From contig CAWDOY010000036.1 in the NCBI GenBank assembly GCA_963803975.1, positions 12,161 to 76,160 of the forward strand: 64,000 bases of DNA. The letters run 5' to 3'. This document shows positions 9,875 through 42,677 of this stretch, piece after piece. Position 1 is the stretch's first letter. The number at the start of each line of letters is the position of its first letter. The position numbers were made by a program, and so were the translations under genes. This DNA comes from an uncultured delta proteobacterium. Its GTDB lineage: Bacteria > Desulfobacterota > WTBG01 > CAIYCZ01. The notes beneath the pieces were generated by a model that saw nothing but the letters and a program-made list of their open reading frames with translations, searched no databases and was not told the origin of the DNA.

Positions 9875-11138
9875 TTAATAACCGCGCTTCTGCAGATACT
9901 GAAGGGTAAACATATCCATGGGGAACTGCTGACCAAATTCAAATTTCGGAGATTGCCATCGTCGCATGGGTTCGCTGAACGTCAATCATCTGACCGGCAT
10001 TGAAATGGGTAACCGGAACACCGTTATAGCCCTTGCCGACAAAACCGATCTGGTCCTGCACCTTCCAGAGTTTACCCTGGCGGTCATAGCGGTCGGAATA
10101 AAGCATCTGCCATGATTCGGGATCGAGATACCATATCATTTTAGTATACAGGAAGTTTGCCTCCCGGTTAACTGCTTCTACGACATGCATTTTTACCCGT
10201 TCCCGCTGCAGGCCTTTCCAGATGCATTCACCCGGCTTATGCTCAAGCTTTTTTGCATCATTATGCCTGCTCATGAGCAGCTCTTTTGCGCCGAGGATAC
10301 TTGTAGGTATTGATGCTGACCGGGCCGTCCCATCCAAGGTTGTCATACGCGCAGTAGTCGCCGCCGCCCTGGGCATCCTGGCGCTCGCTGGTGGAACGGC
10401 GCCTGATGCGGCGGATGGAAGGCATCCAGAACCAGGAGTCAAAGGCCTTCGTGCGGTCTTTGTAATTGATTTCCATGATGCGCATGTTGCGGGTCTCGGG
10501 AGGCGCAAGCTGCAGCATGGTGAAAGCGCGCCATATCTGTTTGGGGTTGTCGGGTATTCGGGGCACCGGCGGGGTGTCAGTCCTGCCGGAAATGAAACGA
10601 CATGTTGTTTTGTACCGTAAGGGTCATGTCATATTTCAGCTTGCCGTCGACGATATAGCCGTCACGTCCTGATTTTTATAGGCATCGCCGTAGTCACGGC
10701 ACCTGAAATTGTGGGCCATTTGCAGGGCATTGTCTTTGGTGTCAGGGAAGGGGACCCCGGCAGTCCAGTTTACTATCTCTCGTTGGCATCGATGCTTGGA
10801 CTGGCCGTAGTATTCCTTGGTGGCTTTAATATAACCGGGAGAATAGGGCACTTCTGGTAGGGGGCGATCACAAACCAGTTGTCACCCCAGTGGTTGGTGT
10901 CCTTCATGAGGCGTACAGTGCTCTCCGGGAGAAACTCCTTTACCTCGTCAACATTGGCCGCGGTAATTTTCTTGCCGGCAAAGGTCTTTTCCCATTCGCG
11001 TACCTTTGCCAGTTCATCTCCCTGGTAGAGGCAGCGGGAAAGTTGATATCAGCAGCCAGCACCACATCAGGCACCAGCATGAACAGCGCACACAGCAGCG
11101 CAACGAACTTTCTGATATTCTTTTTTATATGACATCAT
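9875..11138 (-). CDS. DUF1329 periplasmic LolA-like protein, copy A (frameshifted)
   Basis: Fragments ELAKVREWEKTFAGKKI, AGVPFP, WFWMPSIRRIRR, WYLDPESW, YDRQGKLWK; collinear with the intact paralog at 32268. Confidence 0.85.
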
Positions 11139-11156
11139 GTACCTCCCTCCCGTTTA

Positions 11157-12703
11157 TTAGAATTCGTATGTTATGTCAAATGTACGTGTATCAAGTGGAC
11201 CCGTGGGATAGCCTTTCACGGTTGACCCCTCAACATAGTTAAGATACCGGACCATGTACGTCCAGCGGAATGTGGGCTTGAAGGCGGTCATAAGCGTGTA
11301 ATAGCTCTTGCCGGGGGTGAGCTGATAGGCTGCGTAAAGGCCGACCAGGATTCTATCGTTCCAGAACCCGTAGTCGATAGCCTCGGTCATGGTTGCCCAG
11401 TAATGGCGGTCCGCGGAATAGGTATTGTACGGGAAAATCTGGTAGGTGCTCTTGATTGCTCGGTATCCACTCCTGGCCAGCTGGGTAGAGGTGCTGAGGA
11501 GCTTGCCGCGGTTCCACTGGCTGATCCAGGGTAAATAGATTTTGCCGTCCCAGCGCAATAGTGTCAGCGTAACGGTTATAGCTGCGGGTATCATTGTTGA
11601 TGCCCACGAGATCAGCGCACTTTTTGCTCAATTCCGCGATGAATTCGTTTCGCAGCACACAGCCGCTCATTCGCACCGGCGTGCAGGGGATAAGCGGAAT
11701 CACCTGAGCAATGGGCCGGTTAAAGGTGAAGCCGTATTGAATTGTAGCGCTGGAAGTTTGTCACATCCTTGTCCGGCGGAACGAGCCGCCGAGAGCACCG
11801 GGTCCGAGAGCAGCTATAAGCTGCGCCTCCAAGGCTTTGCCGGTTTTGTACGTACCGTTCGGGTTGCGCTTATTCATGATAAAAGAAGGTCCAGTCAAAA
11901 CCCCAGGTAAAGCCCCTGATTCTGAAGCCTATTGCCGGGTCTCCCCAGGATGAGGGCTTGTCGCGGTAGGTCGATAAGAAAGAGCTCGTTGGGATGCTGC
12001 AAGGCATTAAATGATCGGGGTGCATCAGGTGGTAGCCTGCCGGCCAGTTGTAGTTGGGCTCAAAGTCAGGGATAATAAGGCCTTCAAAGGTCATGTCTAG
12101 CGGGCAGGCCGCGGGGGGTATAATAAAGCCTGAGCATCCACAGGCCGCGTTTTATCTCGGCAAAGTCAGGGTAGCCGGGATTCAGCAGCCCGCGTAAATC
12201 AACGGGGTTGACAATGTCGGCGGTGCGCTCAAACGAGGTCTCGCCCCAGGATACAATCTGCTTGCCGGCGCGGACCTGGAACAGGGAGGTCGTGTACTCA
12301 AGATACAGTTCGCGGCAGACATCGCGAAAGGTCTGATAGGAGCGCAGCTGGCTGATGCCCTTGTGACCGCTCATGTGCCGCACATAATCATTAAAGCCGC
12401 TGTCAACCTTGTCCGCATAATCATAGAACTGCTTCCAGACCCCGTAGGCGTTCCACTCGTGGTCCGGGCACTGCTGGATGTGATACATGGTCTCAAGCTT
12501 CAATGAGGTGCGGAAATTGAAGATGTCGTAGTCATAGAGCTGGCCGGGGGAGGTGTTGTTTGTCCGCAAGTTGAGCTGCTCTGAAATCTTGCCGTGGACG
12601 ACGAACTTGCCGTCGCAAAGTCAATGGCAGAAGCACCTCCTGCCATTACCGCCAGAAGCAGCGCGGAGAGTAAAACTGATAGATAATACAGTCTCTTTTT
12701 CAT
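11157..12703 (-). CDS. DUF1302-like outer-membrane beta-barrel, copy A (frameshifted)
   Basis: Signal peptide; RELYLEY, RAGKQIVSWGE, DIVNPVDLR, GFTWGFDWT; C-terminal ITYEF. Confidence 0.85.
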
Positions 12704-12851
12704 AGGCCCTCCTTTGGTTAAATTTGTTATTCAATACCCCTGAATTGTATGCTAAGGAACTTATAGTAAAAATAATTCAGCATGTAAAGAAATTTTTAGC
12801 AGAATTATACAAAAAATAAGTTCCTATTTTCCAGCTACTTGCCCTGCTTTT

Positions 12852-15207
12852 TCAGAGGAATTTCGGTTTGAACAGGAGTATCAGCACCGGCACCAGAAAT
12901 ACCGCTCCCAGGCAATTGAGGAACAGGATGACCGCCAGCATGAGCCCCATCTGCGCCTGGAACTTGAGACCCGAGAGCGTCCACACCAGGAGGCCGATGA
13001 CCAGGGTCCCGGCAATGGCGATGATTGACTTTGAGTAGCTGCGGATGGTGCGCATCAGAGCCTCCTCAAGGGTGATGGACGGATCAGTTTCTTTTCTCCT
13101 CCTCCACGCGCGCCAGCAGGTATATCCCGTAATCAACCCCCATGCCGATACCTGCGGCGGAGACCGGCAGCGTTGATATGGAAAGGCCGATCTGGTTCAA
13201 GGCCATATAGGCATAGGCCATCCAGTTGGAGATGGCCAGCGGTATGGTGAGGATGAGCCCGGCCTTGAATGACTTAAACTCAAGGGTGCAGAAGAAGAAA
13301 ACCCCCAGCAGTGCCAGGAACAGTGTCTGCAGCTGCTTGTCCCAGACCACCTCGTTGATTGCCGCCTCAGTGCCGATGACGCCGCCGGCAAGCCGGTATT
13401 TAAAGCCTTCCGGCAGTTTGGACAGCCCATTGATATATTGTTTTGCCGTGTCAATGGCGCGCTTTATGGTGGGCCCGGTCTTGTCGGTATAAAAGACCAC
13501 GAGGTTGGTCTGCATGATCTTGGGGTCGACGAACTTGTTCATGTCCCCGGGATCGCCGGACTGAGCGAGGCCGACAAGATAGGCGTTGGCCGGACCGGGT
13601 CTTCCGCAGAGCCCATCCATTTCGGGTCGTCCTCGTGGAACTTCTGCGGCATGACCATGAGGGGGGATATCGATATTCTGAAAGCCGGCGCTGCCCCGGA
13701 TTTTTTCATCATGTAATAGGAGAAATTTTTAACATCCACCATCGATTGCGGGTCGGTGAGGGAGCGCTGCTTTTCGCCCTCCACCATGATATAGAGCGGG
13801 TTGATGAGGGGCAGGTTCTGATTGATGCGCACGCTGTCCTGGTTGTAGCGGGAAGACGGGTAGAGAAGATTTGACCCCACCTCGGCATCGCCCACTATCA
13901 GCTTCTCTGACCAGTAGTAGGAAAAAACGGTTATGAGCACGCTGACAACAATAACAATGTAGCGTCCCTTGCCGACAATCCACGGGGCAAGCCAGTCGGC
14001 AAACTTGTTCTCCCAGCCCTTGCGCTGCTCATCCTGGAGCCGCAGATGTTCTATGTGCTTCAGCAGCTTTGGCGATACCGGCACATAGGTGAGCAGCACC
14101 GGCGTCAGAATAAGGCCCACGATGACCGTGATGACTGACCAGAACGCGCCGGCTATGGCAATGTGCTGCAGCACCGGTACCGGCGTGATGGCGATGATGG
14201 CGATGCCGAAGGCATCGGTTATAATACTGGTCAGTCCGGGGAGGAACATCTGTTCGATAATCACCCGCACGCCTGCCAGGGCGTCTTTGGTTTTGATGTA
14301 CTCCTCATAGTAGCGGTTATAGAGCTGGTGAGAGTGGCGGAAGGCCATGAGAGAGATAAGAAACGGCAGCACAAACACCAGCGGGTCAAGGTTATAGCCC
14401 ATGATGGCCATGAAGCCGAGGCCCCAGATGCCTGAAACGACTGCTGCCAGAGGGACAATCAGCACCGCCCAGAAGGAGCGGTACGCAAGGAAAAGAAGCA
14501 GGGGGATTATCACCAGGGTGGCCCCCATGATGTAGTTCATGGTGTCGATCATGCTGGCCACCACGCCCAGATGCATGGGATGACCGACGATGGAAACGGT
14601 GGTGTTGGCGTCTTCGGTTTTGGCGCGGAGGCGATCGAGCTCTTTGGTTATCCCGGCGTAGTCAAGGGCCTCTTCTTCAAAGAAGTCCGCGTAGATAAGA
14701 GATTTTTTTGAGTCGAGGGAGACATAGGAGCCGTAATAGGCCTCGTTGGAGTAGATCGCCTCTTTTAATTTCTGCATCTCCTGGTCTGTTTTCGGCACCT
14801 CCGGCCACATGAGAGATGTTGCTTCAATGCCCCAGGAGGTTATCTTGGGGTTTTTCAGCTTGCGGGAGGCAATAGAAATAATTTTGTAACGGTCAATGCC
14901 GGGGATTGCCTCAAGCTCGTTGGTGATATAGCGTATCTTCCCCAGGGTGTCTTTGTTGAAGATGTCGCCGTCTTTCACCGAGACCATGATAACCAGAAAA
15001 TTGGCCCCGCCAAAGGTTTTGCGGAAATCATTGTGGACTTTGATGTATTCATGGGTCTGGGGCAGGAGCTCGTTGAAATTGGTGCTGAGGGTGAGGGTCC
15101 GCATCTTAGTAGGCAAAAAATACCGTAATGCCGGCTATTATCAGCAGCACCAGCAGGCGTCTTTTAATAACAAAGTCGGCTAACTTTTTCACAAACAGTT
15201 CGGTCAT
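12852..15207 (-). CDS. MMPL/RND-family transporter, copy A (frameshifted)
   Basis: LLPQTHEYI..H..F...FGGAN, LDPLVFVLPFLI, LAGGVIG, GIGMGVDYGIY, FKPKFL. Confidence 0.9.
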
Positions 15208-15259: not shown

Positions 15260-16317
15260 TTATTTATGCGTTACGGGTATACCGGAAAGCATGGCCCAGG
15301 TTTTACCCCCGTCTTCTGTTTTGATAATGGTTCCGCGTGAGCCTACTGCCCAGCCGTTGAGACCGTCACAGAAATCCATGTCGCGCAGCCAGAATTTGGT
15401 GTTGGTGGCATCGGCATGCAACTCCCAGGTTTTGCCGTTGTCCGCGGAATGGAGGTAGGTGCCTTTCTGCCCCACTGCCCAGAGGTTCCCCTCCCGGGCA
15501 ACAATTTTATAGAGGGTGAGTTTTCTCTCTTCAGCCGGGTTCTTCAGTTTTTTCCAGGTTAAGCCGCCATCCTCGGTGGCGATGATGGTAGAGTCCATTC
15601 CCGAGGCCCAGCCGTGCTGCGGATCGGCAAACCAGACGCTGTAGAGCGACGGGGCAGGGGTCTCCCACTGGGTTTTATCCACTATTGGGATAATCTCTCT
15701 GCACTCCTGCTTTTGCCAGGTTTTGCCGCCGTCCGTGGTGTGATAGATGAGGCTGGTTTCACCGACAACCCAGCCGTTATTCTGATCCGTAAAGTAGATA
15801 CTGTTGTAAATCTTGTCTTCTCCAGAGCCCTGGCTGACCCAGGTGGCGCCGCCGTCACTGGTATGGATGATGGTGCCGAGGTCTCCCGCGGCCCAGCCGT
15901 TGCGCTCGTCGACAAACATCAGGGTAAAGAGATGGTTGGTCACTCCAGTTTTTTGCCGAACCCAGGTTTTGCCGCCGTCAGTGGTATGCAGCATGAGGCC
16001 TTCCCGGCCGCTTATCCATCCAATAGCAGGCGTGACAAAGGACACGGCGCTGAGGTTGTTCTCAACCCCGCTTTTCTGGAACTCCAGGTCTTTCCGCCAT
16101 CCGACGTACAGACAATCACCGAGTTGAAGCCCACTATCCAGGTGTGCTGACGGTCAAGGCAGTCAACGGCAAAAAGATTATCAGTGGTGACAATGGGAAA
16201 GGGTGGCTTCTGGGGAGTTGGCGGCTGGACCCTGCTGCATGAGGAGACAAGAAAAGCTGGCAGGATGAGCAGAAAACAGAGCAGGGCAGGTGTAGCAGTT
16301 TTTGATTTACCGAACAT
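15260..16317 (-). CDS. YCF48/BNR-repeat beta-propeller lipoprotein, copy A (frameshifted)
   Basis: Lipobox VSSC; many GW.VG..G.I.HT.DGG.TW repeats. Confidence 0.9.
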
Positions 16318-16443
16318 ACACATTGTGGCTTACCTCATATTCGTGGTTGAATAACGTTATCATTCACTTTGGGGCTATTATAAAATATATTTCCCGGAAA
16401 ATGTCAATTGAGGCAATCACTAATTTATGGGTAGGGGAATCCC

Positions 16444-17130
16444 CTATGGAAGTTCTCCGCTTAATACCCAGTGAATGGCATGCTGGACCAGCTCAGCGGA
16501 GCTTTTGAGATTGAGCTTCTCCTTGATGTTTGCCCGGTATGCTTCAACGGTTTTGATGCTGATGTTCAGGCTGTCGGCAACCTGTCGGGTGCCGAGGCCG
16601 CGGCCAAGCAGCTGAAATACCTGCAGCTCGCGGTCACTGAGCAGCTCAATCGACGAGGTCGTTTCATCGCGGCGGCTGTCAATGAAGGTATTGAGCATTT
16701 TGGCGCTCATGGCATCGCTCAGGAAAATTTTCCCCTGCAGCACCTGCCGGATAGCAATGATGACTCTTTCCGGTGCTTCCTGCTTCATAATATAACCTTT
16801 TGCGCCGGCACGCAGGGCACGTTCGGCGTATAGAGTTTCATCATGCATGGACAGTACCAGCAGAGGTAAATCAGGGTGCTGCAGGCGGATGGTTTTGATG
16901 AGCTCAATGCCGCTGTCGTGGCCGAGAGATATATCAATGATGGCAATGTCCGGTTTCAAGTCCTGGATGGCAGGCAGCACCGAACGGGCGTTTTCAGCCT
17001 CGCCGCACACCATCAGGTCAGGTTCCTGGTCAATCAGGAGCTTGAGCCCCTGACGGACGATGGGGTGGTCGTCCACGATAAATACCCGGGAACGGATTCT
17101 GTTTTTTTCCGGCCGGATTGCAGCCGTCAT
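16444..17130 (-). CDS. NarL/LuxR-family response regulator
   Basis: IVDDHPIVRQGL, IIDISL, GAKGYIMK, LSDRELQV HTH. Confidence 0.95.
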   Translation of the reverse strand: MTAAIRPEKNRIRSRVFIVDDHPIVRQGLKLLIDQEPDLMVCGEAENARSVLPAIQDLKPDIAIIDISLGHDSGIELIKTIRLQHPDLPLLVLSMHDETLYAERALRAGAKGYIMKQEAPERVIIAIRQVLQGKIFLSDAMSAKMLNTFIDSRRDETTSSIELLSDRELQVFQLLGRGLGTRQVADSLNISIKTVEAYRANIKEKLNLKSSAELVQHAIHWVLSGELP

Positions 17131-17132: not shown

Positions 17133-19158
17133 TTATCCCTCCAGCGCAGCAGTTTTTTGCAACGCACAGTTTACGACAGTTCCGCCGCCGGACCGCGCTT
17201 CAACAGACAGTGATGCTCCTATCATCTTGGCCCGGTAGCTCATGATATGCAGCCCCATGCCTTTACCGCGGTCAGGGGAAGGAGCTAATCCCACGCCATC
17301 ATCCTCAATCGTGAGAACGGTTTGATCGTTGCGGAAAGAAAGACTAATGATGATATGTTTTGCCCGGCCGTGTTTCATAGCGTTATTGACCGCTTCCTGT
17401 GCAATGCGGAACAGGTGCGTCGCGGTGGTAGTGCTGGGGATAACCACCGAGCCGTCTCCGTGAAACAGGCAGGAGATGCTGAAAAGTCCGGTAACCGTAT
17501 CGGCAAGCTCCCGCAGGGACAGCAGGAGGCCGTCTTCCCCCAGCGCAACCGGTGAAAGCCCGCGCGCCAGGCCCCGGGTCATTTCTATCGCCTGGTTCAT
17601 AAGCCGCGTTATATCTTTCGCGTGAACGGTTTCATCGGAGGATTTCGCCGCCAGCTTCTGCTCCAGAACCTTGCTCAAAAAGGCGATGCCGGTCAGGTGC
17701 TGGGAGAGCCCGTCATGCAGATCCTGGCCGATCCTGATCCTGCTCGCGCCCGCTTATCTCGATGATCTCCCGTATGAGCTGCCGGTTCATGGTGGTGTCG
17801 TGGATAACCGCCATGATGCCGCTCACAGCTCCTGTGGCGTCGCGCAGTGGCGCCGCGGAAATGGTCAGATCAATTGGGGAGCCGTCTTTCTTATTACAGC
17901 GAATTTCAAAATCAGTAAAGCTGTTTCCCTGCGTCACCCGCTCCATCATACCCTGAACGTCGCGCTGTTTATCCGGCGGAACAAAGGGAAGCGGCCTGCC
18001 CAGCACTTCTTCCGCGCTCCAGCCGAACATGCGCTCTGCTGCCGGGTTCCACATTTTTACCTTCTGCCCTGCCGCAATGGAAACAATGGCCAGCGGCGAA
18101 GCTTCAATAAGAGCCATGAGCGCCTCGTTTGATTCAATAAGGGCCTCCTCGGCGCGTTTACGCTCGCTGACCTCCTTGACCAACTCAGATTTTTGCCGGA
18201 AAAAAGTGGTGATCAGCCGGGCGAGGTTGCCGAATTCAGTGCGGCTGCCTTCCAGCCGGTGAATGAGCTGCGGGTCTTCTGTTTTAAGATTGCGGGATGT
18301 CATGATTGAGTGGAATATTTACCCAACGCAGCAGAAAGTAGAAAATGCCGGTTATAATTGCCGAGGCAAACACGGCAAACAGCATTATTTGCCGTGTTGT
18401 CATCAGGTTTAATTCTTTTAACAGGGGAGATTCATTCATCACGGAGACCAGCAGCCGGGGTTTGATCCATCCATAGAAAACACGGGAAAAACTGAACGAG
18501 CCGGTGCGGTAATTGTACGTATAGCTGCTGTCAACATTCTCTCCGGTGCCCCCGAGCGGCTGGACGGTAATGGTGCTTTCAGTCAGAATCGACAGCTCAT
18601 CGATATAGTCCCGGCTCCACAGCCTCCCCGCCACCAGGAATCCCGGGGAGCGGTTTCCGCAACCGGTCGCCTGCCGGCTGAACCGGCGCGGTCTGTATCT
18701 CCATGACGCCGTAGAGAGTGTTGATGAAGAAATGGCTGAAAAAATGTGATGCGAAAGACTGGAATCGAGGAGCCGGGGAGGGCTATGTTCTGCAGCTTCT
18801 CCCTGGCCAGGGCGGCATGGCTGAAGTACAGAGGGGAAAAAGCAGCATCAAATATCCACACGGCATGGATGTAAAAGCTCGAAAGAAACGGATCAATAGT
18901 GCTGTGCACCAGTTCCTGATTGCCGTTTGCTATAAAGCTGACTATTTCATCCCGGTTGCTGAAATCATACGCGAACATTTCAAGGGATGCGCTTTCAAGC
19001 TTCAGGATTTTATCGAAGAGGGTGTTTTTTTCCAGGACGCGGGTCCGGATAATCATTTCTTCACGGCTGCGCTGGGAATAGCGCATCAGCATGAAAGCGG
19101 CAAGAAACAGGCAGGTAATGAAAAACAGCAGCAGGATGATTTTGGTCTGTATTTTCAC
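17133..19158 (-). CDS. Sensor histidine kinase (CHASE4-like periplasmic sensor, PAS, HisKA_3; frameshifted)
   Basis: N-terminal TM; PAS WNPAAERMFGWSAEEVLG; QDLHDGLSQHL H-box across a frameshift; IAQEAVNNAMKH, DDGVG, GMGL. Confidence 0.88.
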
Positions 19159-29920: not shown

Positions 29921-29965
29921 TAATGCATTCCTGAAAAATATGTAAAACAAAAGAAGGAGGGCATT

Positions 29966-32267: not shown

Positions 32268-33581
32268 ATGAGTTTACGACGGTTTCAAAAAAATGTACCA
32301 ATGCTCTGCCTGCCACTGATTGTTCTTGCGCTACTTTTTGCGGCTCCGGTTGTGGTCTGTGCGGAACAGCTTAACTTTCCTCTTGCCGCCTTTAGTGACG
32401 AGGAACTGGCAAAAGTGCGCGACTGGGAAAAGACCTGGGCGGGCAAAAAAATTGATCAGAGCAATGTTGACCAGATTAAGGAATTTTTACCAGAATCTTA
32501 TGCCGGCGTTTATAAAAAGCCTGAGGTATGGAATGAGCCCAAGGGGTTCTGGTTTACCATCATTCCCTATAAGCGTTATATCGAGACAAAGGGGATGATT
32601 GAGGCTACTAATAAGTATCATACCCAGGTGAAGGCAGATGCCCAGGGTATTATTCAGAATTATGGCGAAACAGCCGGCATGCCGTTCCCGAATCCGGATT
32701 TATCAGATCCCATGAAGGGTGGGCAGCAACTTGCCTGGAATTATGATTACAATACCCATGGCGATGCCTACCACTGGCTCAGAACCGGCCCGGCCCTTGA
32801 AGTTAAACAGAGGACTGAACGGGTTTCCAGCCAGGACATGACCGAGCTTTATTTCGTGAGCCGTGTGGATGTTGACCCCAAGCCGAACCTTCTTACCAGC
32901 AACCCCAAGGGCATGCGCCGGGGCTATTTCATTCATCTATACAAGCCGCCCGAGTTCGTTAACACCCGCATGTTCAACATCCGCTATCTCGATTACAGCA
33001 AGAGTGATGACGGATATATGTGGTACAGCCAGTTCAGGAGAATACGCAGAATTTCAACAGCGCAACGGACCGACTCTATTGACGGTTCAGACCTCATCTA
33101 TGATGACGAATATTTATGGGACGGCGCAATCCCCAGAAATACGTATAAGTATATCGGCAAAAAAGACCTGCTGTGTACCCGCCAGCTGGATATAAAAAAA
33201 CTGGAACGGGTATCCGGGCAGGGCATGCCCAACGGCATCGCCAGGGAACGGCTGAATACGATAGTTGTTGAAGTCGTGAGCAAAGATAAAAACTACATCT
33301 ATGGGAAGCGGGTGTGGTATCTTGACCCTGAAAGTTACTACATACAGTGGACAGAGATTTATGACAACCTCGGCAGGTTCTGGAAGTGTTTTGAGAACTG
33401 GACGAATCAGTTTAAGGAAGAAGCAACCGGTGAAATGAAAAAGGTAATTGTCGGCACTGAATTCATGGATTTTCAGCGGACTCATTGCGGCATCAGCATC
33501 CAGGAATGCAAAGGTGTCGGCCTGACACAAGTTGACCAGAACATGTTCACCATCAATAACCTGCAGAAGGGCGGTTACTAA
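32268..33581 (+). CDS. DUF1329 periplasmic LolA-like protein, copy B (intact)
   Basis: AGMPFPNP, QFRRIRRIS, RTDSIDGSDLIYDD, KRVWYLDPE, YDNLGRFWK. Confidence 0.9.
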   Translation: MSLRRFQKNVPMLCLPLIVLALLFAAPVVVCAEQLNFPLAAFSDEELAKVRDWEKTWAGKKIDQSNVDQIKEFLPESYAGVYKKPEVWNEPKGFWFTIIPYKRYIETKGMIEATNKYHTQVKADAQGIIQNYGETAGMPFPNPDLSDPMKGGQQLAWNYDYNTHGDAYHWLRTGPALEVKQRTERVSSQDMTELYFVSRVDVDPKPNLLTSNPKGMRRGYFIHLYKPPEFVNTRMFNIRYLDYSKSDDGYMWYSQFRRIRRISTAQRTDSIDGSDLIYDDEYLWDGAIPRNTYKYIGKKDLLCTRQLDIKKLERVSGQGMPNGIARERLNTIVVEVVSKDKNYIYGKRVWYLDPESYYIQWTEIYDNLGRFWKCFENWTNQFKEEATGEMKKVIVGTEFMDFQRTHCGISIQECKGVGLTQVDQNMFTINNLQKGGY

Positions 33582-33893: not shown

Positions 33894-34664
33894 ATGCTAA
33901 GGGCACTCGCTATTGCGGTCTCAGGTATCGTATATTTTATTTTGTCCCTGCTCATATTTCTGCCATTTCGCATGAAACCGGTGGAGAACTACAACCTGTT
34001 TGCTTTACCCATCCTAGCAGCTATTTTTCTCGGGCTGGTATATAAAGTCTGCACGGTTGAAAAAGAGAGCAAAGGCTATCTGTATGCTTTTTACGCAGGC
34101 ATCCTTATGTGGCAGGTAGTCGGTGAAATTCCCTTTATCAAGGTTCCTGCCGGACACATACTACAGTTCAGCGACCTCAACATTAAGATGCTCGGCGGGT
34201 ACTACTATACGCTTGCCGGGTGGATACTGCTGCACATTTTATGGCGGAGCGGGGCAATTAAAAAGCAATTGGCATTCATGTTTGTCATATTTCTTGGCAT
34301 ATGGTCGTTTGAGCTCTACATGGACAACTATTCATTCAGGGTCGCGATGCAGGTCATGCCCATGGTATCCAATGTGATTATGCTGTTCTCCGTGATCGTG
34401 AGTATTATCCTTCTTGTGCTTGCGAGAAAAGCAGCGACCATCGAGAAGAAAACAGTTATCGGCGGTGTTTTATATATATCCATCTCGCTCATCATGATGG
34501 CTTCCGGGCAATGGAAAAAGCCGCAGGATTTTTATATTAAATATGAGAGCACCGGCATAGAGAATGAAATTAAGGAACTGCAGGAAGAGCGCCAGTATAT
34601 TGAAGAAATCAAAACAACGATGAGCATACAGTCCTATATGACTCCCAATCCCTGGGCACGCTGA
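33894..34664 (+). CDS. Hypothetical multi-pass membrane protein with C-terminal coiled coil
   Basis: About 7 hydrophobic segments; AGGAGG RBS. Confidence 0.8.
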   Translation: MLRALAIAVSGIVYFILSLLIFLPFRMKPVENYNLFALPILAAIFLGLVYKVCTVEKESKGYLYAFYAGILMWQVVGEIPFIKVPAGHILQFSDLNIKMLGGYYYTLAGWILLHILWRSGAIKKQLAFMFVIFLGIWSFELYMDNYSFRVAMQVMPMVSNVIMLFSVIVSIILLVLARKAATIEKKTVIGGVLYISISLIMMASGQWKKPQDFYIKYESTGIENEIKELQEERQYIEEIKTTMSIQSYMTPNPWAR

Positions 34665-34727
34665 AGATACTTATAGGAACCTGTTGTTATAAACGAGATA
34701 TCCCATTAGATAATCGGAGGACACCGT

Positions 34728-35380
34728 ATGGCAGAAAACTACACCACCCCGCTTGCCCGTGCGGCAAGAATTATGGAAATTATTATCCCCTGCTATATGT
34801 TTGGCAAGGCCTGGGGGATAGCTGACGCAAAGACGGTTGACCTGTTCCGCGCCATGTTCCCCCCGTTTCTGATCAATATAGCAGAATTTTTTAAAAAAAT
34901 AATGGTGACGGATAACGCCAATATCCAGCGATTCTTTTCCACTGTTTCAGGTGCGATAGTTGGTTTTATTGTTGTTGCGCTGCTGGCACTTATCATGCAT
35001 TTTGTGCTGCGGGACAGAAGATATATTAATTCCCTGCGGTTTACCGCAGTCTCTCTTTGATACCGATTGCTGTTTTGAACGGCACACTCTCTCATGCGAT
35101 AAAAACCCTGGTGGAAAATATGGGCACGCAGACTGCTGACGCGCTCTATGCAAGCACGGTAAGCAGCTCCCGGGGTAATATTCTGATAGACGGCACCTTT
35201 TACCTGACTGCCATGTGGATGATGGGGCGGCGGACTGGGGTCAGCCGCGGAAGACGCTACGGCGTTATTGGCGTGGGCATCGGCTTTATGGTGATCTATA
35301 TGGCACTGGGCCTGATGATATCTCCCGGTGAATGGCAGGCGCTTCTGCCTAAACTGCAACAGGCGTTAGCCAATCACTAA
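34728..35380 (+). CDS. Hypothetical membrane protein (frameshift near 35055)
   Basis: Two overlapping hydrophobic ORFs; GGAGG RBS. Confidence 0.7.
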
Positions 35381-35396
35381 AAGGAGGGGATTGTAC

Positions 35397-36503
35397 ATGA
35401 ACATAACAAAACAGCGTTTTGTCACTATAAATAAATACGCACTCTGGGCTGCGATCATAGTGTACCTCTATGGCCTGTTTGGAACAAAAATAATGCAGAT
35501 AGGAATTTTTTTCGCTCTTGCAGCAGGATTTTTTAATCTGCTGCATCAGAAATATTTCATCGCCCGGCCGCGGCTTGCAGCGCATATCTGGCTTTTGCCG
35601 GCTGTCATCGGCGTGTTCACCTATCCAATGCTCATGGAGAAGCAGCCGAGCGGCCAGAACGCGTTTTATTTCATGCTGACCCTCATCATCAGCCTGATCC
35701 CGTACCTGCTGCTGATCTTCGGCAAAACCGAAGAGCAGCCGCCCAAGAAAGAGCGCCTCAAGGTAATCAGCTTCCGCATTTTTACGCAGATAACGGTGTT
35801 CATGCTCTATGCGGTGCTGACTGCTTATTCATTCATCTACGGATCGAATGTGGCTCTTTTTTTCTGGGGCATGTTTCATGTAATTACGGTAGCCATTTTA
35901 CCGTTTCTCTTCGGCAGGGTGCTGTGCGGCTGGCTGTGCCCCAATGCGACACTTCAGGACGGCCTGTTTAAGAACATGACCTATAAGCGCCCCATTCCGA
36001 AGCTGCCCCAGGCAATTGAAGAGCAGAGCCACAGCACTGCCATGTATCTGAGCGGCGAGGTTGATAAGAATGCTCCGTATTTCCCCTTTACCCTGCTTGT
36101 TTCATGGTTCCCCATGTTTTTTGTTGAGACCATGTTTGATCTCACCGGCGACCTCTGGTACCCCATATACTTCATGTATGGCCTCTATATTGGCTCCCTG
36201 CTGCTGCCGTGGCGGAAGATGTGCACCCATTTCTGCTGGCTGTCATCGTATCGCGGTATTGCTGCTCACGGCAGCCTGTGGCGCATCCGGTATAACAAAT
36301 CAAAATGCAAACAATGCAAAGTGTGCCAGGCAGAGAAAGCCTGCCCGTTCTATATTGACATATGCAATCAGGATAATGAGATGCCGGCAACCTGCTGTCT
36401 GTGCTTCAGCTGCATGGAAGCATGCCCGTTTGAGGGGGTCATAACGTTTAAGAGAGCTCCGGAGGAAAAAGCGCGGGTAAAGGCCTTGGGGAAAGCCGCG
36501 TAA
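35397..36503 (+). CDS. Membrane-bound 4Fe-4S protein, NapH/MauN/NosR-C type
   Basis: TM helices; GRVLCGWLCP, CTHFCW, CKQCKVC....ACP, CCLCFSCMEACP. Confidence 0.88.
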   Translation: MNITKQRFVTINKYALWAAIIVYLYGLFGTKIMQIGIFFALAAGFFNLLHQKYFIARPRLAAHIWLLPAVIGVFTYPMLMEKQPSGQNAFYFMLTLIISLIPYLLLIFGKTEEQPPKKERLKVISFRIFTQITVFMLYAVLTAYSFIYGSNVALFFWGMFHVITVAILPFLFGRVLCGWLCPNATLQDGLFKNMTYKRPIPKLPQAIEEQSHSTAMYLSGEVDKNAPYFPFTLLVSWFPMFFVETMFDLTGDLWYPIYFMYGLYIGSLLLPWRKMCTHFCWLSSYRGIAAHGSLWRIRYNKSKCKQCKVCQAEKACPFYIDICNQDNEMPATCCLCFSCMEACPFEGVITFKRAPEEKARVKALGKAA

Positions 36504-36559: not shown

Positions 36560-37257
36560 ATGGAAAGTCTCAAAGATATTCAGACGCTTGCTTTGGCTGA
36601 GATAAAAAAGAGATTTTCACTCAACCCGGTCCGGCTCAAATATCCGTTTCCGGAACGCTCAAAAAGAACGCTTGGCCTGGTAAAAGTAGACGGACAGGTC
36701 TACAGCTCAGAGCAGTTTTCCCGCGTGGTGTTCATGAAAATAGACTTGCCGTTCTATCTTTCAGTGCGCTCAACCTTTCTGCGTCCCCGCATTGAACTTG
36801 ATTTGCCGGTGTTCACCGGTGAGGTCGTCATAACCGGCAAGAAGCGCATGGTCATGATAGATATTCACCGGGCCGGCGACGATGGGCAGCATGACGATAA
36901 CGCGCTGTTCGACCGTATGATACAAATACGGACCGGTATCCGGCCCTGCTAAAGAAGTCGGGTGCTGTCCAGGGAGAAATTCAGAGCGTTTTTTCAAGGG
37001 CAGCTGTTCAGTCACGCATTACCGAAGCGCAGGATGAAGATGCGCGTAACATCTTTCGCGAGTATCTAAATGTCTTTCTTGACCTGACCCAGAAATCAAC
37101 GCCCCTCACCGGCGAATCGCTTGAACGGGCAAACAATGGTTTTGAAAAATATCTAAAGACCGTTGTCGACCACGACCCGGGCGTCAAGGGCTATAAGGTT
37201 CTGTTCGGCAAAGACAGCGGCGTGACCCGCGCATTAGATATATTTTTTGACCGGTAG
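36560..37257 (+). CDS. Cytoplasmic FDBR/RCCR-like protein (frameshifted near 36930-37010)
   Basis: FLRPRIELDLPVFTGEVV, MIDIH; downstream frame reads IFREYLNVFLDL...FEKYLKTVVDHDPGVKGYKVLFGKD...ALDIFFDR*. Confidence 0.72.
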
Positions 37258-37357: not shown

Positions 37358-38026
37358 ATGGCTGGCATAGTGGAAGGAATACAACAGGCTATTGTGGAGG
37401 GAGATGATGACATTGCGGCAGCGCAGACAAAAAAAGCCATAGAGGATGGTGTTGATACATTAGAGATTTTCAGGAAGGCAATAATACCCGGCATAGAGCA
37501 GGCCGGGAAATTATGGCAGGAGAATGTCTACTTTATGCCTGATGTGGTGCTCAGCGCAGAGGCTTTCAAGGCTGCATTAAAGGTTATAGAACCGTATCTT
37601 AAAAAGATAGATGCACGCTATACAGGTAAAATTCTGCAGGGCGTTGTGGCTGGTGACATGCATGACTTAGGCAAAAGCATCGTCATAGCAGTACTCATGG
37701 GCGCGGGATTTGAAGTCATAGATCTGGGAGTTGATATTCCCGCAGAGGTATTTATTAAAAAAATAAAGGAGCTTCAGCCGGATATTTTGGGGGTTGGTTG
37801 TTATATGACCACTACTATGCTCGGGGTGAAGGAATTGATGCAGGCGCTGCAGGAGCATGGGCTGCGCAATAAGGTTAAAGTAATGATTGGCGGCGTGCCA
37901 ACAACACAACAGTTCGCCGATGAGATAGGGGCAGATGCCTGGGGCAAAGATGCTCTTGATGCAGCTATAAAAGCAAAGCAGCTTATGGAGGCCGTGCCTA
38001 AATGCTTCGATTCGCAAATACGGTGA
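37358..38026 (+). CDS. Corrinoid (B12-binding) methyl-carrier protein, MtaC/MttC-like
   Basis: Four-helix cap (YFMPDVVLSAEAF); GDMHDLGK (DxHxxG); VIDLGVD; VMIGG. Confidence 0.95.
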   Translation: MAGIVEGIQQAIVEGDDDIAAAQTKKAIEDGVDTLEIFRKAIIPGIEQAGKLWQENVYFMPDVVLSAEAFKAALKVIEPYLKKIDARYTGKILQGVVAGDMHDLGKSIVIAVLMGAGFEVIDLGVDIPAEVFIKKIKELQPDILGVGCYMTTTMLGVKELMQALQEHGLRNKVKVMIGGVPTTQQFADEIGADAWGKDALDAAIKAKQLMEAVPKCFDSQIR

Positions 38027-38056
38027 CGTAGGGGATACAAAGAAATGCCTTGCAAT

Positions 38057-38085
38057 GCTCACTCAGCACTAAGTACTGAGTGAGT
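38057..38085. other. Intergenic hairpin
   Basis: CTCACTCAG...CTGAGTGAG inverted repeat followed by TTGACA at 38090. Confidence 0.45.
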
Positions 38086-38122
38086 AAATTTGACATCAAA
38101 TTTATAAAGCGTAGGACTTAGC

Positions 38123-39399
38123 ATGAACCATGGAGAGCAGACTAAGGAAGATGCCCCGCCGATCACTCAAGCAGCAAAAACCGGCACTGCCCATGATCCC
38201 CGTGACCCAAAGACATGGTGGATGGCGTATGCAGCAGAGTGGCCTGCACGGATACCCGTCTTAGCACCCGTAACTGGCTGATCAGGCCAGCACCTTACGG
38301 GAGTTTCAGCAAAGAAGCTGTATGCCGATGCTGCCTGCAATGTAAACCTGCAGGCGGCCTTAGCTGCGTACTATTGCCTTGATGCGGCTGTGGGGGTAGG
38401 AGATACCTACAATTATGAAGCTGAGGCAATGGGGCAAAAGATGATTTACAGTGAAACAGCCATGCCCACGATTGATTCCCGCAGCCCGCTGATACAGCTT
38501 CCGGAGGATTTGAAAAAAATAAAGATTCCGAACTGACCAGTGCCGGCCGTATACCCTTTGTCCTTGATCTTATCAACCTGAACGGCACGATAGGTGCGAA
38601 AACCGGTAAGTTCTGTGCGCCATTCAGCCTTGCGGTATGCATTCGGACGTATCCGCAATTGATTAAAGACCTGAGAAAAAATCCTGAATTTGCCCATGAC
38701 CTCTTTACCTTTTTAGTAGATGAAATACTTACACCCTATTTACAGGTGCAAAAGCAGCAGTGTGATATCAGCAGCGCAACTGCTCGGATAGCCTGGGCAT
38801 CTTTCCCCAATGTGACTCCTGAGCTTTCAGAAAAGTGGGTGATACCCTATGCTGAAAGGCTATTTAAGAATTGTTCAAAATTTGGCGTAGCCGCCTTGGT
38901 TGCCGGCAGCTGTGACTACTGTGAGGAGCGCATCGAAAAGTTTAACAAGGAGATTCTTTTTAAGTGTTTTGACATTCAAAAAAGGCTTGCTTTTGACCGG
39001 CCGGTAGTGTTCTTGGAGTTTTGGGTCGCTGGCATGAATATCCTCTTGAACCGGTCGTTGAATATGTAGAGCAATACAAAATAAATAATATTCGTGCTAC
39101 CATCATGGCCACCATTAGTGCCCGGCTTTTAAGGGACGGCCCGATAGAGATGATTGTGAAAAACATCAAGCGGTTTATTGATGTGCTGGGCCGTGACCAC
39201 AATGTAGTTATTCTTATGGCCAATGTCCCTGCCGACACCCCTTCGCGTCATATTCACGCTGCGGTCAGCTGCAGTACATACCTATGGTCAGCTGCCCCTG
39301 GCTGGAGATCTCGACACAAGAGCATTTCAGATACCTGAGCGGGAGTCGTTTCATGAGTATGTAAAAACCATGTCAGGCGGGAGTGATGTCATCTTTTAG
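38123..39399 (+). CDS. Uroporphyrinogen-decarboxylase-family / MtaA-like methyltransferase (heavily frameshifted)
   Basis: Fragments RIPV, YNYEAEAMG, AGRIPFV, DLRKNPEFAHDL, LLRDGP, ANVPADTP..HIHAAV. Confidence 0.75.
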
Positions 39400-39417
39400 T
39401 GTCCCTATCGGGGATGG

Positions 39418-39614
39418 TTGAAACCCCTCGCCTTTAGGCGAAGCAAGTTTTGTTTTGTCGCGTTGCGACTTGTCATTCCGGCCACCGAGCCGGAATCCAG
39501 GGTATAGGGCACTTGGGGCTTCTGGATGCCGGATCAAGTCCGGCATGACAGAAATAGTTGATTTTAATCAACACATATTAGAACCCCTCGTCTTATAGAC
39601 GAGGGTTGTTCAGT
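39418..39614. mobile_element. Possible non-autonomous IS200/IS605-type end remnant enclosing a palindromic REP-like element
   Basis: Two related hairpins GAAACCCCTCGCCTTTAGGCGA and GAACCCCTCGTCTTATAGACGAGGGTTGTTCA flank TGTCATTCCGGC...CCGGCATGACA (39471-39550); no transposase present. Confidence 0.45.
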
Positions 39615-39669
39615 AATAAAAAGAGAATGTTGCTAACGTGAGAGCAAATTGTAAAAGTCTTCAAGAAAC

Positions 39670-39925
39670 GGGATTGCTTCACTTCGCTCGCAATGACAAA
39701 TGGCGTCTGTGCTGTCATTGCGAGCATCTGACCCCGGCGCTGCGCTTCGGGGTTGTTCATGAAAGAAACAAGTCTCGGGAGACCCCTCTTACATCCCCCT
39801 TTAATGGCAAGGGGGGAACCAGGGGGGTGTCATTGCATGCATGAACCACCTGCACAATGTTTTTGAATTGTGCATGAACGGAAGTTTCTTTGGAGAAGTG
39901 CAGCGACGAAGTAATTTCTGGAAAT
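39670..39925. repeat. Cluster of REP-like palindromes
   Basis: GGATTGCTTC..TCGCAATGACA / TGTCATTGCGAG inverted pair; CCCCCTT...AAGGGGG hairpin. Confidence 0.55.
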
Positions 39926-39966
39926 ATGACTTTTGCAATTGGCTCGTGAGAATAAATTTATAATAT

Positions 39967-40869
39967 ATGCACAAATTTAGCAGAGCACAACAGGTCTATA
40001 CCATTGCCGGAGTTGACATTGGCGGACAGCCCGGAGAATATCCTACCGTGCTTGTAGGAAGCATCTTTTTCAGCAAGCACAAAATAGTGAGCGATCCGCT
40101 CAAGGGCATCTTTGATCAGGAGGCTGCACTGGCCCTGTTACAGCAGGAACAGGAAGTATCAGCTTTTACGGGAAATCCGCGTTTTGTTGATCCAATCGGT
40201 GACACCGGGGAGGCGCTGATACAGTACATAAAATTTATTGCAGCACATACAACGGCTCCGATACTTATTGATTCACCGCTGCCTGCAGCGCGGCTGGAAG
40301 CGATCAGATATTTTGCCGGAAGCGATGTGATGCCCCGCCTGATATATAATTCTATTGCCGAAGATTTTACCGAGGAAGAGCTGCTCTGCATGAAAGAATG
40401 CGGAATCAAGAATGCTATTATACTTGCCTTCAGCACCACAGCAATGAGACCAAAGGACCGGATTAAACTGCTTAAGGAAAAACTCCTTCCGGCAGCCGAG
40501 CGTGCGCAGGTGGAAAACATACTTGTTGATCCAGGCGTGCTCGATATACCCAGTGTAAGCTGGGCGGCCCTGGCAATTCAAGAAGTTAAGGAAGAATTTG
40601 GTTTTCCTGCGGGCTGTGCGCCGTCTAATGCCCTGCTTAAATGGGAGAAAGTACACCAGCGGGGAACAGCAGCTTTTCAGGCAGCAGCAGCAGCCGTTTA
40701 CTCTCTTACCACCCTGCACGGCGCAGATTTTGTTCTGTACGGACCGATTCGTTTCGCGCCGTGGATTTATCCTGCGTGCGCAGCTGTTGATGCTATGCTT
40801 GCGTACGGAGGCCGTTTTAACGGTATTCGACCTGCTTCCCAGAATCATCCTCTCTATAAAATATTTTAA
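39967..40869 (+). CDS. MtrH/MtgA-like methylcorrinoid:pterin methyltransferase
   Basis: IGGQPGEYPTVLVGSIF, PILIDS, IYNSI, LVDPGVLD, GCAPSNA, GADFVLYGP. Confidence 0.92.
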   Translation: MHKFSRAQQVYTIAGVDIGGQPGEYPTVLVGSIFFSKHKIVSDPLKGIFDQEAALALLQQEQEVSAFTGNPRFVDPIGDTGEALIQYIKFIAAHTTAPILIDSPLPAARLEAIRYFAGSDVMPRLIYNSIAEDFTEEELLCMKECGIKNAIILAFSTTAMRPKDRIKLLKEKLLPAAERAQVENILVDPGVLDIPSVSWAALAIQEVKEEFGFPAGCAPSNALLKWEKVHQRGTAAFQAAAAAVYSLTTLHGADFVLYGPIRFAPWIYPACAAVDAMLAYGGRFNGIRPASQNHPLYKIF

Positions 40870-40881
40870 GGGGCTTTAACC

Positions 40882-42677
40882 GTGCCCTGTTGCGTCGCTT
40901 TTGAACCCCTTGGTATTCATGCTGATTGTGTCCGTGGGTCATTGCTCCATGAAGTTGCACGAAACACGGGTATTGCTCTTTTATCAGCATGCGGCGGTAA
41001 CGGCACCTGCGGGAACTGCAGAATGCAGATTGTTGAGGGAACGGTTTCTTCCCCGACCGCACAAGAATATGAAAAATTCGGCATACAAGAAATTGAACAG
41101 GGATATCGTCTGGCCTGTCAGACGCAGATCCTTGAAAATATCAGAGTATACCTGCCTCCCGCATCGCTTGCGATTGATCAAAGACTCTCCCTCGCCGGTC
41201 CGGACAGTGCCGCGCCTTTTGACCCCCTGGTGGAAGAAAAACACCTTATCATGCAGCCTCCCCCCGCTTATGACTATCAGACAGATTGGGAGCGGCTGGC
41301 TGAAGGGTTACAAGCTTCCTTCGGCATCAGCGCAGCAAATCCTGATCTGACCTTACTCCAGCGTCTTCCCGTGCTGCTCAGGGAAAATGGATGGTGCGCC
41401 AGAGTGAGTATCCGCAGGGAAGAGGTGATTGATGTCAGAGCCCCTCATCAAAGTCCTCTGGGTCTGGCTCTGGACATTGGCACCAGCAAGATAGCCGGAT
41501 ATCTGGTGGATATGGAAAGCGGCACCTCTATTGGCATGGAGGGAATCATAAACCCCCAAATTGCGTATGGTGAAGATGTGATACAGCGTATTTCTTATGC
41601 AATGGAACAGGGGGTGCAGCAATTACAAAAGGTGCTCGTAGCGGGGATAAACAATCTCATTGAAAAACTTTGTTCAAACCCACAGAGGATTGTTGAAACA
41701 ACCGTCGTGGGTAACACGGTTATACACCATCTGTTGCTCGGCTTGCCGGTAAAACAGCTTGGCATGGCTCCCTATACAGCTGCGGTACGCTGTGCGCTTG
41801 AAGTAAAGGCAAGGGATTTGAACATCTGCAGCGCTCCCGGAGCATATATTTACCTGTTGCCTGCTATAGCTGGTTTCATAGGGTCTGATCATGTTGCCAT
41901 GATACTGGCAACGAGAATCCATGATACGCCCAAAACTATACTGGGGATTGATATTGGAACAAATACTGAAATAGTCCTTGCCCATAGAGGTGCATTATGG
42001 AGCACCTCGTGTGCCTCCGGACCTGCGTTAGAAGGAGGACATATCACATGCGGTATGCGCTCTGTAACAGGGGCTATTGAAAAGGTACGGTTGCACGGCT
42101 CAGAAGTTATTTGTGAAACAGTTAATGGTGCCCGGGCGATTGGCATATGTGGTTCAGGTAGTATCGATGCTGTTGCAGAACTTTTCCGAACCGGTATCAT
42201 CAACAGCAGGGGGCAGCTCATGAGCGGACCGGGAGTCCGTCACAATGGAAAGGAAAAAGAATTTATTCTGGTTCCGGCTGGACAGAGAATGGTATTGGAA
42301 AGGATATAACGATTACTCAAAAAGATATCCATGCAATTCAGCTGGCCAAAGCGGCAGTCAGAACCGGCATTGAAGTACTTCTGAACAAGGCAAACATTAC
42401 TTCCGATGAGATTGATGAAGTGATTATAACCGGCGGATTCGGCACCTATATTGATCCTGCAAGCGCTATAGCAATAGGCATGTTTCCTCCTCTCCAACGT
42501 GAGAAGTATAAACAGGTGGGTAACGCAGCCGGAATTGGGGCCAGACTGGTACTTATATCTAAATCACAACGGTCTATTGCAGAACAAATCTCTTCAAGAG
42601 TTACGTATGTCGAATTGATGCAACACCCGGGTTTCAGCAAGAAATTTGCCAGAGCCATGTATATCCCGGGGCTATGA
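40882..42677 (+). CDS. ASKHA-type ATP-dependent corrinoid reductive activator (RACo/DUF4445) with N-terminal 2Fe-2S (frameshift near 42290)
   Basis: CGGNGTCGNC..RLACQ; ALDIGTS; GFIGSD; IDIGTNTE; GPALEG; GICGSG; TQKDI..IQLAK; GNAAG.GA. Confidence 0.93.

Follow-up and report, generated by a model that had tools for sequence, protein, structure and literature searches.

Bilin-reductase-fold proteins encoded beside envelope transport and redox genes in a class of Desulfobacterota, with a possible role in tetrapyrrole scavenging

All known enzymes of the fold shared by the ferredoxin-dependent bilin reductases (FDBRs), red chlorophyll catabolite reductase (RCCR) and coproporphyrinogen oxidase (CPOX) are ultimately oxygen-dependent, directly or via a preceding step, and from this the fold was proposed to post-date oxygenic photosynthesis (PMC10151467). 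FDBR-like genes are known in non-phototrophs, i.e., pre-PcyA and the 'outgroup' of Ca. Schekmanbacteria (PMC10151467; PMC13446030). In bacterial haem breakdown, the flavodoxin HmuF/FldH binds haem and reduces anaerobilin, a linear tetrapyrrole (PMC10404700). Ca. Anaeropigmentia, a class of Desulfobacterota, was reported with bchE, bciB, chlLNB, bchXYZ and chlP homologues and without a reaction centre, with archaeal-type coenzyme M (CoM) synthesis and a genome of about 4 Mb and 47% GC. In the accessible text these chlorophyll-type genes are explained only as loss from a photosynthetic ancestor, and the word 'bilin' is absent (bioRxiv 10.1101/2021.03.22.436540; Murphy et al.). Here, three FDBR-fold genes were analysed in 64,000 nucleotides of DNA from an uncultured delta proteobacterium of Desulfobacterota (assembly GCA_963803975.1, contig CAWDOY010000036.1, positions 12,161 to 76,160), called the window below. 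The genes belong to a system that is conserved, and undescribed in the literature searched. The reading favoured here, with slightly better than even confidence, is import and flavin- and iron-sulfur-driven redox reworking of scavenged tetrapyrroles derived from chlorophyll or haem.

The three genes were found where the first-pass annotation had placed them. The gene at 19337-20236 (- strand) encodes a protein of 299 aa with a lipoprotein-type N-terminus, whose Cys23 is invariant in 48/48 aligned relatives. The gene at 21191-21988 (-) encodes 265 aa with a hydrophobic N-terminal anchor. The gene at 36560-37257 (+) is frameshifted, i.e., one base is missing in a G run near 36930 in comparison with an intact copy of 232 aa on the strain-variant contig C24. 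The genes and their proteins are named below by their first positions. By inspection, 19337 and 21191 carry export or membrane signals, and 36560 is predicted to be cytoplasmic. The motif RP..[DE]..[LA]P.[LF]..[DE] occurs in six of the 28,107 six-frame open reading frames (ORFs) of the source genome and in none of 5 shuffles of it. All six are FDBR-like, i.e., the three window genes, two C24 duplicates of them and one paralog.

The window lies on contig C36. The source genome has 4.25 Mb, is 98% complete and contains many frameshifts and strain-variant duplicate contigs. C24 repeats the window region at 84-96% identity. The ORF positions first given were right, but many of the window genes are frameshifted, likely by assembly errors. 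A pseudogene cluster was ruled out, since the reading frames are broken at different places in the two strain copies and there are intact orthologs.

The proposed FDBR fold was confirmed by Pfam for two proteins and by an AlphaFold model with structure comparison for the third. PF05996, with a Pfam cut-off of 31 bits, matched 21191 at 70.9 bits and the intact C24 copy of 36560 at 63.3 bits; the 5' fragment of 36560 reached 25.5 bits, under the cut-off. 21191 aligns to PebB (6qwq) at E 7.7e-8, and 36560 was aligned to PebS, PebB and HY2. Both are FDBR-fold proteins by sequence profile. For 19337 there was no PF05996 match and no family match in the Pfam scan, and its pairwise BLAST against 21191 was marginal (E 9e-4). 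It was reached by a profile of 13 paralogs from its own genome (E 1.5e-7). The AlphaFold model of 19337, built from 48 sequences, had a pLDDT of 92.7 and found PebB and PcyA at E 1e-8 in Foldseek. In VIA-align, the model scored Z 22.2 with PcyA/PebB, 22.1 with HY2, 21.0 with PebA, 19.0 with RCCR and 17.0 with CPOX, whereas the best unrelated chain scored Z 5.2. The root-mean-square deviation from PcyA was 3.2 across 235 residues. As modelled, 19337 is a full-length alpha/beta/alpha sandwich of the FDBR/RCCR/CPOX fold superfamily. For 19337, the ESM Atlas returned no more than a lead below threshold (0.75, to an FDBR cluster), and nothing relevant was found when its family was searched by sequence in the PDB. 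All well-scoring structural relatives, i.e., PcyA, PebA/B, PebS, HY2, RCCR and CPOX, act on a tetrapyrrole.

The catalytic residues were compared by alignment. In 19337, D130 and D265 are invariant in 48/48 sequences and align with both FDBR catalytic aspartates. In 36560, E88 and D206 are invariant in 28/28 and align with Asp105 and Asp206 of PebS. Glu at the Asp105 position is found in active Pre-1 enzymes (PMC13446030). In 21191, the central D120 is invariant among 54 sequences, and GGPA stands in place of the distal Asp. Reduction, as first suggested for all three proteins, is therefore plausible for 19337 and 36560, which keep both catalytic acids, and less so for 21191, which keeps one of two. 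Neither Glu76 nor His88 of PcyA is present in any of the three. The PcyA equivalog NF002760 gave 30.9 of 206 bits, the PebA/PebB/HY2 equivalogs gave at best 53 bits against cut-offs of 263-327, and PF06405 (RCCR) matched no window protein.

The FDBR-fold proteins might instead be non-catalytic pigment binders or detoxifiers, i.e., carriers or sensors, with the flavoproteins alone doing the chemistry. This is considered improbable. It would suit the missing catalytic Asp of 21191 and the place of 19337 inside transport operons and ahead of a sensor kinase, and ferredoxin is not periplasmic. Single substitutions also made a Pre-3 FDBR a porphyrin binder (PMC13446030). However, the complete acid pair of 36560 and the position of its gene after that of an iron-sulfur protein argue for catalysis.

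A quick maximum-likelihood tree of 77 rows was made with 6 annotated PcyA/PebA/PebB as references. The other rows were 16 FDBR-like and 5 CPOX-like proteins of the source genome and 47/150 and 3/77 of the sequences from two homologue searches. Duplicates and two frameshifted paralogs were omitted, and RCCR, PebS and pre-PcyA rows were not included; a phage search with P0263 for a PebS-type row found nothing. The three window proteins formed one clade (SH-aLRT 98), apart from the reference PcyA/PebA/PebB. The sister clade (support 100) consists of FDBR-fold proteins of about 215 aa that share a GG(P/V)S motif and in most cases do not reach the Pfam cut-off (P0220-P0347; L075:9965-10621; L175-L180). 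One member, in a Eubacteriales genome, lies in a TetR-NmrA-membrane protein operon, and the type was found in 6/400 genomes of that genome's class. The NmrA-like gene was considered as a vinyl reductase, and the searches gave no such match. Some sister-clade proteins look eukaryotic by composition.

CPOX/HemF-like proteins were found in the same genome. C29:7346-8176 (-; L038) and four paralogs on C5, C31, C46 and C48 are of this type (PF01218, 51.7 bits), and the profile of FDBR-like paralogs reaches them weakly (E 0.0065). These paralogs are a possible sequence bridge between two families that are said to share the fold alone.

The FDBR-fold genes had been described as an island, and this was wrong. 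PF05996 gave 23 matches in the source genome, i.e., about 18 distinct genes after removal of strain duplicates and addition of divergent members. They are spread over a dozen contigs, and the trait extends across the class. Among 41 genomes of the class, 31 had 6-22 matches (FDBR-rich below) and the other 10 had none (FDBR-less). Of 401 genomes drawn evenly from the phylum, 13 had a match, and all 13 belong to this class; outside it the count was 0/386. The window consists of two separately conserved modules and a strain-variable methyltransferase module. A horizontally acquired island was ruled out, because the GC of the region equals that of the genome and the trait is class-wide. Photosynthetic contamination was ruled out by the lack of a type II reaction centre, Mg-chelatase and phytochrome and by orthologs in 31 genomes. 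Metagenomes from freshwater and sediment contain near-identical DNA, in 12 studies and 18 DNA runs with a word share of at least 0.31. Buried pigments are abundant in such habitats. In two RNA runs of small word share, contigs of relatives cover 27/30 and 28/30 bins; these are assembled contigs with lengths of as much as 39 kb and might stem from DNA.

The 21191 gene closes an operon on the - strand. At its head is a frameshifted TetR regulator gene (24650-25292; tblastn, PF00440 on a relative), followed by a geranylgeranyl-reductase-like (GGR-like) FAD protein (23235-24599; PF01494; TIGR02032 at 64 bits, under cut-off) and a Flavodoxin_5 protein (22040-23129, frameshifted near 22884). The flavodoxin gene, between the GGR-like gene and 21191, was overlooked in the first-pass annotation. 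Its product has a signal peptide by inspection, an extra C-terminal domain and a PF12724 match of 58.8 bits in an intact relative. It is HemG/HmuF-like: the HemG model matched weakly (32 of 142 bits), and the best Foldseek match was the heme-bound FldH 8G64 (E 6.4e-6; TM 0.30 on query), with a small margin over other flavodoxins. The predicted complex of 21191 and the flavodoxin scored 0.00, which weighs neither way. At 35 loci of 21191 relatives in GTDB genomes (several per genome in some cases, and many incomplete), the neighbours were Flavodoxin_5 (26), GGR-like (20), YCF48 (13), DUF1302 (12), MMPL (12), DUF1329 (11) and TetR (10). Three of the loci, from other phyla, had none of these neighbours. 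A CAAX-protease-like (Rce1/CPBP) membrane protein gene at 20387-21082 (-; PF02517) also lies next to 21191, a linkage of close relatives only.

The 19337 gene stands ahead of a left transport operon, also on the - strand. Directly downstream are a frameshifted CHASE4-PAS histidine kinase (17133-19158; PF05228, PF00989, PF02518) and a LuxR-type response regulator (16444-17130; PF00072, PF00196). Four frameshifted transport genes follow, i.e., a YCF48/BNR beta-propeller lipoprotein (15260-16323; PF14870), an MMPL/RND inner-membrane transporter (12846-15200; PF03176 weak; 72% identical to an intact relative across 777 aa), DUF1302, likely an outer-membrane barrel (11157-12780, start approximate; PF06980, tblastn with intact relatives), and DUF1329, a LolA-like periplasmic protein (9875-11135, start approximate; PF07044 on a fragment, three-frame read). 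Relatives of 19337 were found at 43 metagenome loci, most of them short. Of these, 16 are 5 kb or longer, and 8 of the 16 carry transport genes, two of the 8 apparently from one organism. The lipoprotein gene sits between MMPL and DUF1302 at L125 and L133, and directly before the CHASE4 kinase, as in the window, at L109, L115, L116 and L117. A sister subfamily of 19337 lies beside aldehyde oxidoreductase instead.

The right transport operon, on the + strand, contains a frameshifted YCF48 lipoprotein gene (about 26240-27326; tblastn), a frameshifted MMPL transporter gene (27434-29854; PF03176, tblastn), a small exported protein gene (29964-30437), and intact DUF1302 (30621-32198; PF06980) and DUF1329 (32268-33581; PF07044) genes. 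The small protein belongs to an 11-member paralog family that recurs in such transport operons. It may be cupredoxin-like, but had no Pfam or NCBIfam match. Between the two divergent operons, a 17-bp inverted repeat (25615-25684) overlaps the best sigma-70-like promoter (25624-25653) and is a candidate operator.

The right operon is followed at 33894-36503 (+) by genes of two membrane proteins without family and a NapH-like membrane iron-sulfur protein (35382-36503; PF12801), which likely supplies electrons to the 36560 protein. Orthologs of 36560 are present in 31/42 class genomes. In the 20 neighbourhoods compared, 36560 orthologs follow a NapH-like gene in 3/3 genomes of the same family and an alpha/beta hydrolase gene in 8. 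Behind 36560 is the strain-variable module (37358-42677, +), i.e., a corrinoid protein, an MtaA/URO-D-fold methyltransferase (frameshifted), an MtrH/MtgA-like methyltransferase and a RACo activator. The C24 copy of the locus does not have this module, and the orthologous module follows a 36560 ortholog in 1/20 relatives, from another family. A paralogous corrinoid module is found on C25 behind two other FDBR-like genes. An FMN_red/Isf-type flavoprotein gene (42734-43306, -; PF03358) adjoins the 36560 gene where the module is missing. Short repeats at about 25376-25417, 27346-27386, 37990-38090 and 39710-39915 recur at many genome sites and in metagenome contigs, and two of these four elements fall inside the methyltransferase module.

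Of the neighbours named at first, two transport operons (YCF48-MMPL-DUF1302-DUF1329), the GGR-like flavoprotein and the corrinoid/MtrH-like/RACo module were confirmed. The suggested recurring linkage to DUF1302/DUF1329/MMPL and redox partners also survived the check across the 35 and 43 loci. Within 8 kb of 19 FDBR-like genes of the source genome, GGR-like genes were found for 7/19 (background 7.6%), transport genes for 4 (6.6%) and chelatase-like genes for 3 (5.4%), counts in which tandem FDBR-like pairs are not independent.

Other genes of tetrapyrrole metabolism vary together with the FDBR-fold genes in the class. CPOX-like paralogs are present in 29/31 FDBR-rich and 0/10 FDBR-less genomes. 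Divergent ferrochelatase-like genes, many with signal peptides, were found in 30/31 FDBR-rich genomes, whereas canonical ferrochelatase was found in 0/31 FDBR-rich against 8/10 FDBR-less genomes. Genes like the B subunit of dark-operative protochlorophyllide oxidoreductase (DPOR) or chlorophyllide oxidoreductase (COR), some with a PCP_red domain, are present in 21/31 against 2/10. HemE above cut-off is found in 0/31 against 7/10, and ComA in 27/31 against 1/10.

The source genome has the HemA, L, B, C, D route to uroporphyrinogen III and cobalamin genes, and no canonical HemE, ferrochelatase, AhbD or AhbA/B was found in it. It shows no known route from uroporphyrinogen III to haem, though 48 ORFs carry at least two CXXCH motifs. 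The earlier statement that heme oxygenase and phytochrome are lacking holds genome-wide, with 0 PF01126 matches and no PHY domain in the 98% complete genome. Mg/Co-chelatase H, a type II reaction centre and DsrA were also not found in it (type I reaction centre was not searched). As to bilin acceptors, no phycobiliprotein or globin was among the scanned neighbours; no genome-wide search for either was made.

Several clusters of the source genome carry such genes. In C3:156895-171560 (L076) and C50:21400-37500 (L083, L087), there are three DPOR/COR-like N/B pairs, two NifH-like L genes and three chelatase-like genes. Exported esterases and an old-yellow-enzyme (best NCBIfam match bilirubin reductase, 275 of 750 bits) also lie there, beside DUF1302/DUF1329. 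Families of large exported proteins, which carry ferrochelatase-like motifs at the N-terminus and match Pfam weakly or not at all, are encoded at C8:82980, C29:37506, C35:40014, C43:448, C41:7179, C9:3689 and other sites. They are candidates for periplasmic metal removal from pigments. Proteins at L082:5664-6491 and L029:10059-10919 are flavin-reductase-like and fused to PCP_red, a domain otherwise typical of DPOR subunit B.

It is also conceivable, though unlikely, that the fold was recruited for a non-tetrapyrrole flat or hydrophobic substrate, i.e., carotenoid or isoprenoid lipids, quinones, aromatic or steroid-like compounds, in a lineage of general hydrophobic-biomass degraders. The identity of the proteins to true FDBRs is just 10-25%, and the very large FAD-binding-4, aldehyde:ferredoxin oxidoreductase (AOR) and GGR-like families and a CrtO-like gene beside a transport operon would agree with this. 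In Pseudomonas, DUF1302/DUF1329/BNR/RND genes are tied to growth on fatty esters (bioRxiv 2020.07.04.188060). However, FDBR, CPOX, class II chelatase, DPOR with PCP_red and the HemG-like flavodoxin are expanded together. A single non-tetrapyrrole substrate is a poor explanation for this joint expansion of unrelated tetrapyrrole folds. By count, the source genome has about 30 AOR, 30 FAD-binding-4, 27 GGR-like and 16 PNPOx-like clusters, numbers inflated by frameshift fragments, and its CrtO-like gene adjoins another transport operon.

The genes could also make a tetrapyrrole of the organism's own, which MMPL would export. This could be a pigment, a cofactor, or haem that is formed from uroporphyrinogen III in a new way. 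The early haem genes are present and the known late routes missing, and the CPOX-, HemG- and ferrochelatase-like genes could fill this gap; Murphy et al. took the chlorophyll-type genes of Ca. Anaeropigmentia as biosynthetic. Against this stand the lack of a Mg-chelatase H subunit and type II reaction centre, and the high number of paralogs under TetR/MarR control, with 18 FDBR-like and 5 CPOX-like proteins besides many chelatase-like ones that are exported, which biosynthesis would not need. The export of chelatase-like proteins and of the flavodoxin suits the processing of incoming material better. Biosynthesis is regarded as a rather slight possibility.

Scavenging of tetrapyrroles is preferred. 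The substrate had been called not determinable; genome context now favours tetrapyrroles as the putative substrate. From the observed fold, residues, linkage, co-distribution and missing pathways, we infer substrate, transport direction, electron donors and reactions as follows. DUF1302, DUF1329, YCF48 and MMPL would move a hydrophobic pigment across the envelope. The 19337 lipoprotein may be a periplasmic pigment carrier, or a sensor for the CHASE4 kinase encoded behind it. Membrane-anchored 21191 would work with the exported flavodoxin linked to it, whose flavin may supply or take electrons. Cytoplasmic 36560, fed with electrons by the NapH-like protein, may reduce a double bond in the ring or in a side chain. 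Double bonds of vinyl or phytyl groups could be the target of the GGR-like enzyme, and the corrinoid enzymes could remove a methyl group and pass it to the folate pool. Flavin and iron-sulfur partners would in this way replace the route of heme oxygenase and ferredoxin. The products would serve growth and, in the source genome, likely haem supply too.

Several observations weigh against scavenging. Known CPOX chemistry requires oxygen. No paralog reaches the equivalog cut-off of a curated FDBR, CPOX, ferrochelatase, HemG or DPOR, so each may have changed its substrate, and 21191 is without the distal Asp. No ring-opening enzyme was identified in the source genome; the HutW/ChuW ring opener is not found above cut-off (TIGR04107, best 212 of 400 bits). 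Transport genes adjoin the 36560 ortholog in 3/20 relatives only, and for 9/19 FDBR-like genes there is no transport, GGR, chelatase, PNPOx, CPOX or DPOR gene within 8 kb. DUF1302 was found in 40/41 genomes of the class and is missing from none of the 10 FDBR-less genomes, which means that the transporter does not belong to the FDBR trait alone. An AhbD-like gene is retained in 9/31 FDBR-rich genomes, 2 of them above cut-off, and haem auxotrophy is therefore not class-wide. Kin genomes are not independent, and the co-distribution may reflect one ancestral event. Pseudomonas needs this set of four genes on fatty esters, and export or esterase functions were proposed for them (bioRxiv 2020.07.04.188060), so import here is only suggested. 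Ca. Anaeropigmentia was reported with cbb3 and bd oxidases (bioRxiv 10.1101/2021.03.22.436540), and strict anaerobiosis cannot be assumed.

A wider interpretation is put forward tentatively, as less probable than not holding. The class may be a specialist pigment eater, which imports remains of chlorophyll, bacteriochlorophyll and haem and strips them of metal, ester and side chains. Reduction or opening of the macrocycle would then proceed without oxygen, and an expanded set of FDBR-, CPOX-, chelatase- and DPOR-like enzymes, part of it periplasmic, would do this work. If this is true, organisms and enzymes of pigment diagenesis in anoxic sediments would be named, the 'bacteriochlorophyll genes' of Ca. 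Anaeropigmentia would be a pathway run backwards, and the origin of the fold only after oxygenic photosynthesis would be challenged. A sediment class with 6-22 copies, with lipoproteins in transport operons and, in the source genome, no heme oxygenase, is a misfit with a post-oxygenic origin. The genes offer concrete enzyme candidates for chlorophyll and haem transformation in anoxic sediments. They also offer a testable answer to the puzzle of chlorophyll-type genes without a photosystem in Ca. Anaeropigmentia. The window proteins are small, and a colour change can be used as readout.

The literature searched was thin on subscription papers, and no description of exported FDBR-fold proteins, of their linkage to transport operons or of their expansion was found in it. 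The supplement of PMC10151467 may list some sequences of this lineage. The source genome matches Ca. Anaeropigmentia in ComA, chlLNB-like and other gene families and the lack of a type II reaction centre, and the two lineages resemble each other in gene content, ComA, genome size and GC. Archaeal-type ComA is present in one copy. At 630-4589 of the window lies a trio of FAD-binding-4 and CCG iron-sulfur genes, whose CCG subunits match TfrB best, under cut-off. By this likeness to the CoM/CoB-dependent fumarate reductase, the trio may be a place of coenzyme M use.

The FDBRs PcyA, PebA, PebB, PebS and HY2 (PF05996; PDB 2g18, 2x9o, 6qwq, 2vck, 6kme) share the alpha/beta/alpha fold with the window proteins (Z 17-22), and the central and distal acid positions are kept in two of the three. 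Unlike these FDBRs, the window proteins are in a separate clade, are multicopy and in two of three cases carry export or membrane signals, and their genome is without heme oxygenase, phytochrome and type II reaction centre. Pre-1 is alike in the Glu at the Asp105 position, as in 36560. However, Pre-1/Pre-3 cluster with heme oxygenase and bilin-binding globins (PMC13446030), whereas the window-type genes lie with transporters and flavoproteins. Pre-PcyA clusters are marked by heme oxygenase, BBAG globin, V4R and Fe-S genes, and of these neither heme oxygenase nor globin nor V4R was found in the scanned neighbourhoods of window-type genes. In the accessible main texts of PMC10151467 and PMC13446030, 'Desulf' is absent, and the outgroup of PMC10151467 may include this lineage.

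The ChuW/HutW/HmuW and ChuY/HmuF systems of haem breakdown (PMC10404700) are alike in their uptake genes and in oxygen-independent tetrapyrrole reduction by a flavodoxin-fold protein. They differ in that DUF1302/DUF1329/MMPL are found here rather than TonB/ABC, the flavodoxin is exported and HutW is not found above cut-off; FDBR-fold proteins are not part of their operons. RCCR (PDB 2zxk) of the plant PAO/phyllobilin pathway has the fold in common (Z 19.0) and a catabolic use, on the opened chlorophyll ring. It presumably has a catalytic Glu/Asp pair, as in 36560, which the literature search did not find. RCCR acts after an oxygenase, and none is known in the source lineage. The genes described here do not have the defining features of heme oxygenase/FDBR, PcyA, Peb, pre-PcyA or Hut/Hmu systems. 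By analogy, they would act most like RCCR or HmuF, i.e., in catabolic tetrapyrrole reduction.

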